In this document: positions 33,405 to 34,887 of the stretch, in pieces
How positions within the stretch are numbered: position 1 is the first letter of the stretch
Layout of the letters: each line of letters begins with the position of its first letter
Assembly: GCF_022763345.1 (NCBI RefSeq)
Contig: NZ_JALEGS010000021.1
Span: 35,083-99,082, forward strand
DNA: 64,000 nucleotides
DNA from: Phaeodactylibacter sp.
GTDB taxonomy: Bacteria > Bacteroidota > Bacteroidia > Chitinophagales > Saprospiraceae
Direction: 5' to 3'
Program-made: the position numbers and the translations under genes
Notes under the pieces: model-generated
What the model was told of the DNA's origin: nothing
Databases searched by the model: none
What the model saw: the letters and a program-made list of their open reading frames with translations, nothing else

Positions 33405-33763
33405 AAGAATACTTTTGATCAAAGATAAGCCTATTTGGAGGAAGGGGCAAGGTGTGAGATGACAGAGCGCGTCCACTGAAGTGGCTTCAAGTTAGGTGGC
33501 ATTGTGTGTTCTTGACGCAGAGGGCTCGGGAGAAAGGACCGACTTCATTAATTAAAAACGTCGGACAGGGAGTGCTCCCGGGGTTTGACCAAATCGCGGC
33601 CTGAGACTAGGCTGAAAGGTTGCCCCCGTACAGCGATCTATGACCTGAGGCACTAGTGCTGACTTAATCGTCAGTATAGTTAGGCTCAATTATATAAAGA
33701 AATTAGTAGATCGATACTTGTGAATAAAATGATGCTATAGGGCCTAACTAATTGATCGTTTTG

Positions 33764-33771
33764 TATATTTG
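33764..33771 (+). promoter_or_regulatory. Bacteroidota -7 promoter box for the Fic gene
   Basis: TATATTTG 21 nt upstream of ATG 33793. Confidence 0.6.
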
Positions 33772-33792
33772 ATGCGATCAAATGATGGCATC

Positions 33793-34752
33793 ATGATTCA
33801 AAAGTACTACGAGGGAACCTCTAAAATAATTAACCTATCAATAGAAGTTGGTAAATTGATAGGGATAGTTGACGCAACATATCTAAGAAAACCTCAAACA
33901 AATTTACGACGGGAGAACAGGATAAAGACGATTCAGTCCTCCCTGATGATTGAAGGTAACACCTTGTCGTTAGATCAAGTAACAGCGATATTCGAAAACA
34001 AAAGGATTATAGGTCCGGCAAAAGATATAAAAGAGGTTCAAAATGCAATTGAAGTCTACAATAAACTGAGGGATTTTGATCCATACAGTGAAGAATCCTA
34101 TTTATTGGCACACAAAATATTAATGTCTGGATTAGTGGATAATGCTGGAAAATACAGGGCAAAAGGGGTTGGGGTATTTAAAGGAGAACAGATAGCACAT
34201 ATGGCGCCTCCTGCATGGAATGTAAGTAATTTGATGAGCAATTTATTTACCTATTTGAAAGAGAGTGAAGACAATCAAATCATAAAAAGCTGTGTATTCC
34301 ATTACGAAATGGAGTTTATACACCCATTCATGGATGGAAATGGTAGAATGGGCAGGTTATGGCAAACATTGATATTAATGCAGGAGAATCCAGTATTTGA
34401 GTATTTACCGATAGAAATAGAGATTAAGAAAAATCAAGAAAAGTATTACGAAGCGTTATCAGAATCAGATAAAAAAGGCCTATGTACTAAGTTTGTAGAA
34501 TTCATGCTTGGAATGATAAAAATAAGTCTGAGCGATTTAATAGAAGATCAGAGAAAATCCTTTAGTGATGAGGAGAGGTTGCAATATTTTAAGGAACAAA
34601 CAGATTTGAAGGAATTTACCAGGAAAGATTACCTGAGGGTATTTAAGGATATATCCACAGCTACAGCAACAAGAGATTTAAAAAAAGGAGTAGACTTAGG
34701 AGTTTTAAAAAAGAAAGGTGAAAACAGGTTAGCGAAATATGAATTCAAATAA
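33793..34752 (+). CDS. Fic family protein with C-terminal winged HTH
   Basis: SSLMIEGNTL, Fic motif HPFMDGNGRMGR, C-terminal TRKDY…ISTATATRDL; AT-rich; ATG 33793 preferred because TTG 33769 lies in the promoter box. Confidence 0.92.
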   Translation: MIQKYYEGTSKIINLSIEVGKLIGIVDATYLRKPQTNLRRENRIKTIQSSLMIEGNTLSLDQVTAIFENKRIIGPAKDIKEVQNAIEVYNKLRDFDPYSEESYLLAHKILMSGLVDNAGKYRAKGVGVFKGEQIAHMAPPAWNVSNLMSNLFTYLKESEDNQIIKSCVFHYEMEFIHPFMDGNGRMGRLWQTLILMQENPVFEYLPIEIEIKKNQEKYYEALSESDKKGLCTKFVEFMLGMIKISLSDLIEDQRKSFSDEERLQYFKEQTDLKEFTRKDYLRVFKDISTATATRDLKKGVDLGVLKKKGENRLAKYEFK

Positions 34753-34763
34753 AAATGGACTTT

Positions 34764-34887
34764 GCCTAACACAGGCTACATGCCATGCCGGTAAAAATCT
34801 TCTAGAGGAAAATGGAGATGGAAAAGCCGCTGCGCTGAACCGGTAGAGGGGCAATATGGCTTTGGTAGCTGGTGTCATAGGTTATAC
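34764..34887 (+). mobile_element. attC-like recombination site (degenerate)
   Basis: GCCTAAC (RYYYAAC) 11 nt after the fic stop; imperfect IR gctac/gtagc, gccat/atggc, gcc/ggc; ends GTCATAG-GTTATAC; complementary GTTAGGC at 33679..33685. Confidence 0.5.

Follow-up and report, generated by a model that had tools for sequence, protein, structure and literature searches.

A Fic gene that is very probably a stranded gene cassette points to an integron-like system in Phaeodactylibacter

Integrons are in practice defined by an integrase that carries the IntI-specific domain. Integrons with an inverted integrase also exist, for example in Treponema denticola, and the phd-doc cassettes of Vibrio integrons are two-gene toxin-antitoxin pairs. 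According to Messier and Roy (2001, as cited in PMC9668308), the additional domain of IntI is necessary for integron recombination. In Bacteroidetes, IntegronFinder 2 recorded In0 elements and one complete integron only, that of Salinibacter ruber (PMC9024848). Cassettes have also been described at secondary sites, one example being aadB in pIE723, a derivative of RSF1010 (Recchia and Hall 1995, Francia 1993 and Segal 1999, as cited in PMC4889954). Here, we describe a Fic gene in a 64,000-nucleotide stretch of a Phaeodactylibacter genome (the window, in its full length). The gene is very probably a single integron-type cassette that became stranded and fixed outside any array, and its borders led to a family of attC-like sites, a tyrosine recombinase and arrays of cassettes in the same genus.

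The window corresponds to positions 35083-99082 of contig C65 (NZ_JALEGS010000021.1) in a 6.9 Mb Phaeodactylibacter genome (Saprospiraceae/Lewinellaceae, Bacteroidota), denoted G000. The locus was compared by BLAST with 40 relatives, and the genus set consisted of 11 Phaeodactylibacter genomes. The sister genome G002 is that of a cultured strain, P. xiamenensis KD52. Sequences from outside the genus set included L030, an unrelated Saprospiraceae metagenome-assembled genome (MAG), and L160, a metagenome contig from the Joint Genome Institute (JGI).

An earlier note on this DNA, made from the letters alone, had proposed that two complementary heptamers bound the Fic gene like the cores of an integron cassette. 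Both heptamers are present. GTTAGGC (33679-33685, plus strand) sits 108 nt ahead of the in-frame ATG at 33793, close to the 110 nt given before. Its exact complement GCCTAAC (34764-34770) begins 11 nt past the TAA stop codon (34750-34752). Read directly, the first is an R'-type left junction, G/TTAGGC (the slash marks the crossover), in which the TTRRRY after the G is complementary over 7 nt to the R'' of the same unit. The crossover would fall between 33679 and 33680. The second is an R'' core of the RYYYAAC type, placed just 3' of the open reading frame (ORF). Between them lies the cassette body (33680-34763, plus strand), with a 5' leader, a promoter, the Fic ORF and an 11-nt 3' spacer. The body is single copy in G000, is 94-97% identical to the versions in G002 and G003, and has a GC content of 0.33-0.37 as against 0.51 for the genome. 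A 5' TTAGGC complementary to its own 3' core, together with a 3' repeat that belongs to a rule-obeying attC family, argues that the Fic unit is an integron-type cassette. That the cores bound it beyond chance is borne out elsewhere as well: GCCTAAC opens a repeat family in the arrays of sister genomes, and homology in L030 starts at TTAGGC.

The ORF (33793-34752, plus strand) encodes a Fic-domain protein of 319 amino acids (Pfam PF02661, 6e-19). Its translation contains the catalytic motif HPFMDGNGRMGR, the N-terminal inhibitory motif SLMIEG and a C-terminal winged-helix-like tail. Both patterns expected of a class II-like Fic protein, HxFx(D/E)GNGRxxR and (S/T)xxxE(G/N), are present in this one chain. 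The structural matches include PDB 4rgl, named 'Fic' (4.8e-78 over residues 8-253), and FICD (about 1e-13). The protein resembles class II Fic AMP-transferases such as 4rgl and human FICD in both the catalytic and the inhibitory motif, but differs from them by the winged-helix-like tail. Unlike a phd-doc cassette of Vibrio, it does not form a toxin-antitoxin pair of two genes. The product is a putative auto-inhibited (class II-like) AMP-transferase. Upstream of the ORF, the sequence TATATTTG (33764-33771, plus strand, direct reading) matches TAnnTTTG, which we take to be the -7 promoter motif of Bacteroidota. The motif is preserved as TACCTTTG and TATCTTTG ahead of Fic homologues at eight other loci. 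The description of an AT-rich Fic ORF with a promoter of its own was therefore well founded, and Fic would be expressed from that promoter. Its maintenance by selection appears probable, as it is intact in three species, with 97% amino-acid versus 94% nucleotide identity.

Downstream of the ORF, the 5' part of an attC site is retained (34764-34836, plus strand). It consists of R'', the spacer ACA, the L'' box GGCTACATGCCATGCCGG (34774-34791) and the start of the variable region, as read from the alignment. A profile built from 19 sister attC sites matched it with an nhmmer E-value of 7.6e-16 over model positions 3-70. These are the 5' 73 nt of the site; L' and R' are absent, and were lost at about position 34836. 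The cut attC is fused to the remnant of a second Uma2 gene (34835-34879, minus strand), of which the first 15 codons (MTPATKAILPLYRFS) are recognizable as a repeat of the N-terminus of the intact Uma2 gene. In G002, a full-length Uma2 paralogue takes the place of this remnant. Next comes a miniature inverted-repeat transposable element (MITE) of 167 bp (TTATAC…GTATA; 34882-35048, plus strand), with full-length copies in G000 at C93:36893-37059 and C68:99044-99209 (95% identity). At this locus the MITE is found only in G000, and the orthologous place is without it in G002, G007 and G008. The earlier note had seen here one imperfect inverted repeat of about 120 nt with a degenerate right arm ending in GTCATAG-GTTATAC. 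That repeat turns out to be a composite of the attC part, the Uma2 remnant and the MITE. The segment 34764-34887 folds no better than shuffled sequences (z of -0.14 for the bottom and -0.95 for the top strand). GTCAT holds the ATG of the Uma2 remnant, and GTTATAC, which had been taken for R', is the first bases of the MITE and departs from GTTRRRY. Instead of being degenerate, the right arm is missing, with unrelated sequence in its place.

The segment 34765-34837 recurs in many sister genomes. In 12 copies from five of these, the alignment holds from an R''-like box on (…CCTAAC, …CCCAAC, …GCAGAAC), and the upstream flanks are unrelated and AT-rich. A 29-mer of the family, GGCTACATGCCATGCCGGTAAAAATCTTC, occurs in nine of the 11 Phaeodactylibacter genomes; G002 has 27 copies of it and G009 has 10. 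The similar sites for which a search had been recommended do exist. A full site consists of R'', 3-4 nt, the 18-nt L'' given above, a variable part, the 18-nt L' CCGGCACGTCACGTAGCC, 5-6 nt and G/TT. Full sites are of two sizes: long ones measure about 178 nt and short ones about 133 nt. The consensus folds far better than shuffled sequences (z of -6.2 for the top and -7.5 for the bottom strand), and the bottom strand is more stable in 14 of 19 natural copies, with a mean of 2.1 kcal/mol.

Seven nucleotides is a short match, and 12 of the 848 plus-strand GTT sites in the window pass a loose attC test at 7 nt. Since the present 3' region of the window does not fold either, the cores might be due to chance, the downstream repeat might be an ordinary REP-like (repetitive extragenic palindromic) or terminator-like element, and Fic might be a plain horizontally acquired gene. 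The arrays of the sister genomes make this explanation hardly credible. A walk from attI in G002:C2 met five cassettes in succession before the contig ended. Each of them starts with 8-10 nt that are the reverse complement of its own R'', and their attC sites are 61, 61, 189, 66 and 187 nt long. The rule holds for seven others as well, which brings the sister cassettes to 12, with 8-11 nt of complementarity in differing sequences. Such compensatory pairs of R boxes, chained from attI, are not expected of chance repeats. Three apparent rule-breakers comply as well: each has a hidden short attC of unrelated sequence and identical architecture. In these sites of 61-70 nt, the spacing of R''-spacer-L''…L'-spacer-R' is kept although the sequences are unrelated, which also speaks against chance. 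As a control, 110 GTT sites in the G002 array were subjected to the loose test; six passed, and five of the six were the chained borders. The loose test is unspecific, as 0.4-1.5% of GTT sites pass it, and so only chained borders and family membership carry weight. Two more points against chance are the G/TT joint common to attI and attC and the identical 5' border of the Fic unit in the unrelated context of L030.

The cassettes are single co-oriented ORFs, mostly of unknown function (DUF5655, DUF4236). Two additional attC fragments of the family, both decayed, are present in G000, at C31:9348-9449 and C34:22715-22745, each directly after the stop codon of an ORF. The C34 fragment is a 3' end only (…CCGGCACGTTACGTAGCCGGGGCCG/TTAAG). 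Both are other stranded cassettes of this genome; a 5' border was looked for at C31 and none was found. The same attC family is present at 94-97% identity in three other genera among 120 sampled (G096:C301, G104:C30 and G123:C53/C96/C64), which suggests cassette exchange across genera.

The absence of a nearby integrase, reported earlier, holds for the window but not for the genome. A search with TIGR02249 located a tyrosine recombinase of 491 amino acids on contig C79 of G000 (274-1749), and also in G002:C2, G001:C34, G004:C35 and G007:C205. On all five contigs the recombinase stands beside an attI and a cassette array, and attC copies lie 0.7-6 kb downstream of it on the same strand. About 230 nt past the integrase stop codon are conserved in the five genomes, up to …GTATTGCGCTGAG/TT or …ACGCAATACTTCGTATTGCGCTGAG/TT; beyond this point the sequences are unrelated. 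The conserved stretch has the behaviour of an attI. The G/TT crossover is common to attI and attC, and cassettes have been exchanged between them: those beginning with TTCACAGACAATCGCGCAAC… and TTATGGGGTACCGCATCAG… stand behind attI in one genome and behind attC in a second, and the G/TT joint is identical. Integrase and cassettes are co-oriented, and attI lies about 230 nt past the stop codon of the integrase gene; this is not the divergent intI arrangement of classical integrons.

The recombinase scored 218 bits against NF040815 (XerA/integron integrase; cut-off 220), 212.8 against TIGR02249 (cut-off 265) and 129.6 against PRK15417 (cut-off 435). The match to TIGR02249 is in two pieces that skip model positions 181-238, and a BLASTP alignment to a canonical IntI stops at the position of the additional domain. 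With 16 residues (397-412) in place of 58 model positions, the protein is devoid of the IntI additional domain around patch III. Of the tyrosine recombinase with an IntI insertion for which a search had been recommended, the recombinase was found and the insertion is missing. For an AlphaFold model (pLDDT 85), the best Foldseek match was IntI4 of V. cholerae (2a3v; E-value 1.4e-17, TM 0.73), and the next was XerA (5hxy). The core is like that of XerA and IntI4, yet the protein meets neither family's cut-off, and it has an extra N-terminal tandem domain of about 200 amino acids. Within it, two βαβ-rich repeats span residues 16-190; their consensus is IKxIxGRRW…W..P. A search of the PDB with the model of this domain (pLDDT 87) returned no fold match (best E-value 0.05). 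A HARP-like identity is no more than a lead: some homologues have a weak Pfam HARP match (27 bits), and the G000 N-terminus alone has no Pfam match.

The recombinase family is large, with more than 7000 proteins at E<=1e-20 in Bacteroidota, annotated as 'site-specific integrase/XerD'. The same layout is seen in L160, the integrase homologue of which (P0018) is 40% identical; its attI-like site, …GCGCGTAGACGCGCTAG/TTAGGCGAGG, is interrupted by an IS3 element. Within the same region (9401-15027), one cassette of 688 nt then follows six times in tandem, the copies being 90-98% identical; each has an attC of about 147 nt, the R'' GGCCCCTCGCCTAAC and the R' GTTAGGCGAGGGGCC. A single cassette has thus been amplified in this distant member of the system. 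In L158, where the homologue is 42% identical, the stop codon is followed by …ACACGCAAATGCTCGGATATATCTGAG/TT. The prediction that the Fic cassette points to a little-studied attC-type system of Bacteroidota is borne out by these platforms, which occur in five genomes of Phaeodactylibacter and also among more distant Bacteroidota. A single canonical IntI exists in the genus (TIGR02249, 316 bits; G001:C485, L119 973-1911), on a 3-kb GC-rich MAG contig that lacks the Phaeodactylibacter attC family. It was dismissed as the cognate integrase, and probably belongs to another element, which may be a second integron type, or is contamination.

The system shares much with sedentary chromosomal integrons such as the V. 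cholerae superintegron with its V. cholerae repeats (VCR). In both, a cassette combines one ORF with an imperfect palindrome on its 3' side, which has R''/L''…L'/R' boxes and spacers of unequal length. The G/TT crossover, the cassette start complementary to its own R'' and the attI beside a tyrosine recombinase are also alike, and so are the near-identical attC sites within a genus, the cassettes of mostly unknown function and the slightly more stable bottom strand. The differences lie mainly in the integrase. That of Phaeodactylibacter lacks the IntI additional domain, stays below the TIGR02249 cut-off and carries the N-terminal tandem domain; moreover, it is co-oriented with the array, and attI follows its stop codon. 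In contrast to the sites of sedentary integrons, the Phaeodactylibacter attC has no predicted extrahelical bulges, and its long variants (about 178 nt) are above the usual size.

The Fic locus itself could be followed in several relatives. In L030, where Fic is 90% identical, TTAGGC is the exact point at which homology to the window sets in, and 3' of the gene lies an attC variant; the unit has the same borders in an independent context. The cassette is common to three species (G000, G002 and G003), with one cassette in each. G000 retains the 5' part of attC, and G002 and G003 retain the 3' part (…AAAATGGTAAATTAAGAATCCGGCACGGCGTGTAGCCGGGC…), having lost the 5' part by an internal deletion at an AAAATGG microhomology. 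Taken together, the two parts imply that the common ancestor of the three species had a complete attC of the short class. At the right junction, the attC end in G002 and G003 reads GTAGCCGGGCTGTATGG and is followed by a REP-like hairpin. A second GCCTAAC in the leader (33742-33748), which had been noted as unexplained, is indeed present; it is missing from the orthologous loci in G002, G003 and L030, and is probably a chance occurrence.

At its left border, the cassette abuts a stump of 17 nt (ACTTAATCGTCAGTATA; 33662-33678, plus strand) of a MITE or insertion sequence (IS) terminus. The same 16-17-mer ends about 85 genomic repeat copies. G002 has the same 17 nt, and G003 has 49 nt of a different MITE subtype in the same place. 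The stump is part of a perfect 19-nt direct repeat, ACTTAATCGTCAGTATAGT (33662-33680 and 35032-35050), which the earlier note had not mentioned. The second copy (plus strand) is composed of the last 17 nt of the MITE and GT. The repeat brackets the low-GC segment exactly, with 0 matches expected by chance, and the mobilisation of parts of integrons by pairs of MITEs is known (Gillings 2009, as cited in PMC8618304). One could accordingly take the repeats for att sites, or for a duplicated target, of a 1.37-kb mobile element bearing Fic, or see in them MITE ends that mobilised Fic as a composite. Such an origin is very improbable. The right copy ends a full MITE that is limited to G000, whereas G002 has the left stump alone. 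The left copy is a mere stump, longer in G003, and the two ends are direct, not inverted. In addition, the Fic unit of L030 is without such a repeat. The two copies do not go back to one insertion event, and the att-site and target-duplication readings were rejected. The stump of G002 without a right MITE, the longer stump of another subtype in G003 and the GT that follows eight of 85 such termini in G000 all argue that the 19-nt repeat is two MITE ends of different age.

Members of the MITE/IS family of G000 have about 45 nt of terminus in common (…CATTGAGTAGGTTTGCTGTGGCAAACCACTTAATCGTCAGTATA); the genome contains about 85 such termini, and the interior falls into several subtypes. The flanks are compatible with a TA duplication. 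The termini often lie 80-120 nt from contig ends, and are evidently the cause of many assembly breaks. In the MITE of the window, the left end TATACGCAATACGAAGT (34887-34899) has 13 nt (CGCAATACGAAGT) in common with the reverse complement of the attI palindrome ACGCAATACTTCGTATTGCG of G000:C79 (L135, about 95-125, minus strand). This likeness may reflect either chance or a real relationship.

The cassette is solitary, as had been stated: it is not part of an array and is flanked by a Uma2 gene on one side and the DUF2867/NAD-binding gene on the other. The left junction reads …CAGTATAG/TTAGGC (…ACTTAATCGTCAGTATAG/TTAGGC; TATAG/TTAGGC), that is, the MITE end plus a G. It is unlike an attC end (GGGCCG/TT) or an attI end (CTGAG/TT), and the left G/TT is joined to DNA that is neither. 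The proposed insertion at a secondary site agrees with this junction, which abuts non-attC DNA, but the right junction has been lost in all three species. With that junction gone, the data fit the secondary-site route without proving it, and we regard it as an evenly balanced proposition.

An alternative is that Fic is a real cassette left over from a small array, or from a cluster of attC sites with no integron-integrase (CALIN), or that it was moved out as a piece by a MITE/IS rearrangement, the neighbouring attC or attI having been deleted later. Rearrangement and IS activity are listed among the sources of CALINs (Cury et al., PMC4889954). The locus offers ample opportunity for such events: tandem Uma2 paralogues, Uma2 fragments, MITEs and REP-like hairpins differ among five species, the stump lengths of 17 and 49 nt indicate deletions at the left border, and the far flank of the locus in G003 maps to another G000 contig. 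This origin is nevertheless doubtful, though a real possibility. No trace of attC or attI is left of 33679, the bases before G/TT (TATA) match neither an attC end (GGGCC) nor an attI end (GCTGA), and all three species have a single cassette.

Several observations weigh against Fic being a stranded integron-type cassette, or against the system being an integron. The window has half an attC, in which L'' alone survives, and an inverted repeat of L'' and L' can no longer be formed. The complementarity of its cores is 7 nt, compared with 8-11 nt in sister cassettes, and the left core in G002 and G003 is GTCAGGC and not GTTAGGC. In G000, the attC family is represented by three fragments only, and the array past attI is unassembled; its continuation was looked for, and no contig overlapping the C79 start was found. 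The minimum free energy fold of attC has one 1x1 mismatch and no bulged extrahelical bases. With respect to both domain and cut-offs, the 491-aa recombinase misses the definition of IntI, and its role in recombination is putative. Finally, among the relatives compared, neither an exact empty site nor a surviving right junction was found. In G001, G004, G007 and G008, Uma2 stands beside the DUF2867 gene without Fic, and the exact target sequence is not preserved. The right-flank hairpin GGACAAGGGTGCAG…, used as a probe for the empty site, proved to be REP-like, with 10 copies in G003. Despite these points, the stranded, integron-type gene cassette remains by a wide measure of confidence our explanation for the Fic unit.

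For such a stranded cassette, the following course of events may be proposed. The recombinase would have put a circular Fic cassette, via its folded attC, into a non-canonical G/T site next to a MITE end (…TATAG/T…); we give this step an even chance. It would parallel the placing of cassettes at secondary sites by IntI1. What came later can be read from the sequence: a deletion cut attC at about 34836 and removed most of the neighbouring Uma2 gene, and the MITE landed beside it. Lacking L' and R', the present site can presumably no longer fold, and the cassette would therefore be immobile, whichever route brought it there.

The Fic unit resembles the secondary-site cassettes and CALINs described before (Cury 2016, Neron 2022) in being a lone cassette with its left G/TT joined to non-site DNA and an integrase elsewhere in the genome, trapped by an incomplete site. 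It differs from the aadB-type cases in that the right junction and half of attC are gone, that the host is a Bacteroidota chromosome and not a proteobacterial plasmid, and that it has its own promoter.

The left neighbour, outside the cassette, is an intact gene of the Uma2 family (32832-33405, minus strand; Pfam PF05685, 4e-32), and the right neighbour is the DUF2867/NAD-binding gene (35344-36804). Tandem paralogues of Uma2 (PF05685), 73% identical and homologous in their upstream regions, are present (L019, L022, L026), and multiple 3' fragments of Uma2 are found in G004 and G010. The Uma2 locus is therefore a hotspot of duplication, deletion and MITE insertion. G003 has 10 copies of the GC-rich REP-like hairpin CCAAGGGTGCAGTTTCCCACTGCGCCCTTGG (L140-L148); the remnant of the Fic attC carries one copy at its 3' end, both in G002 (C39:51109-51141) and in G003. 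Upstream of the DUF2867 gene is a hairpin with a 14-bp stem (GTCAGGTCGCGACT…AGTCGCCACCTGAC; 35066-35098), which is kept in G007 and G008 and lies elsewhere in G001. The structured-looking spacer at 33420-33660 belongs natively to the upstream side of Uma2, and relatives have a homologous stretch. An Rfam scan of window positions 30000-38000 at E<=1 matched no RNA family, which rules out the spacer as a known RNA. Farther to the left, an ORF of 1000 amino acids (29693-32695) combines a caspase domain (Peptidase_C14) with two FGE-sulfatase domains, and its second half has a GC content of 0.41-0.49.

In a full-text literature search, no description of an integron-like system of the Phaeodactylibacter type was found. 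With moderate confidence, we propose that it represents a class of integrons not described so far and widespread in Bacteroidota. The class would be characterized by a recombinase intermediate between Xer and IntI, devoid of the additional domain and equipped with an N-terminal tandem domain that may take over the recognition of folded sites. The gene would be transcribed towards attI (a short palindrome with CTGAG/TT or CTAG/TT), and the enzyme would capture cassettes with attC sites of classical architecture and 61-190 nt in length, and would also drop cassettes at non-canonical G/T sites of the chromosome.

The lone Fic cassette is in itself modest, one more solitary and decayed cassette, and its value lies mainly in pointing to this system. 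From it the way led to complete platforms (integrase, attI and chained cassettes) in a marine genus available in culture. P. xiamenensis KD52, which has at least 27 attC-family sites and a contig that carries integrase, attI and five cassettes, makes the system testable in a cultured strain. If the enzymes are active, the additional domain would not be universally required for the recombination of folded attC sites, and surveys based on IntI would under-count cassette systems in a major environmental and gut phylum. The stranded cassettes would then show a system that feeds genes with their own promoters into ordinary chromosomal loci, where they become fixed.

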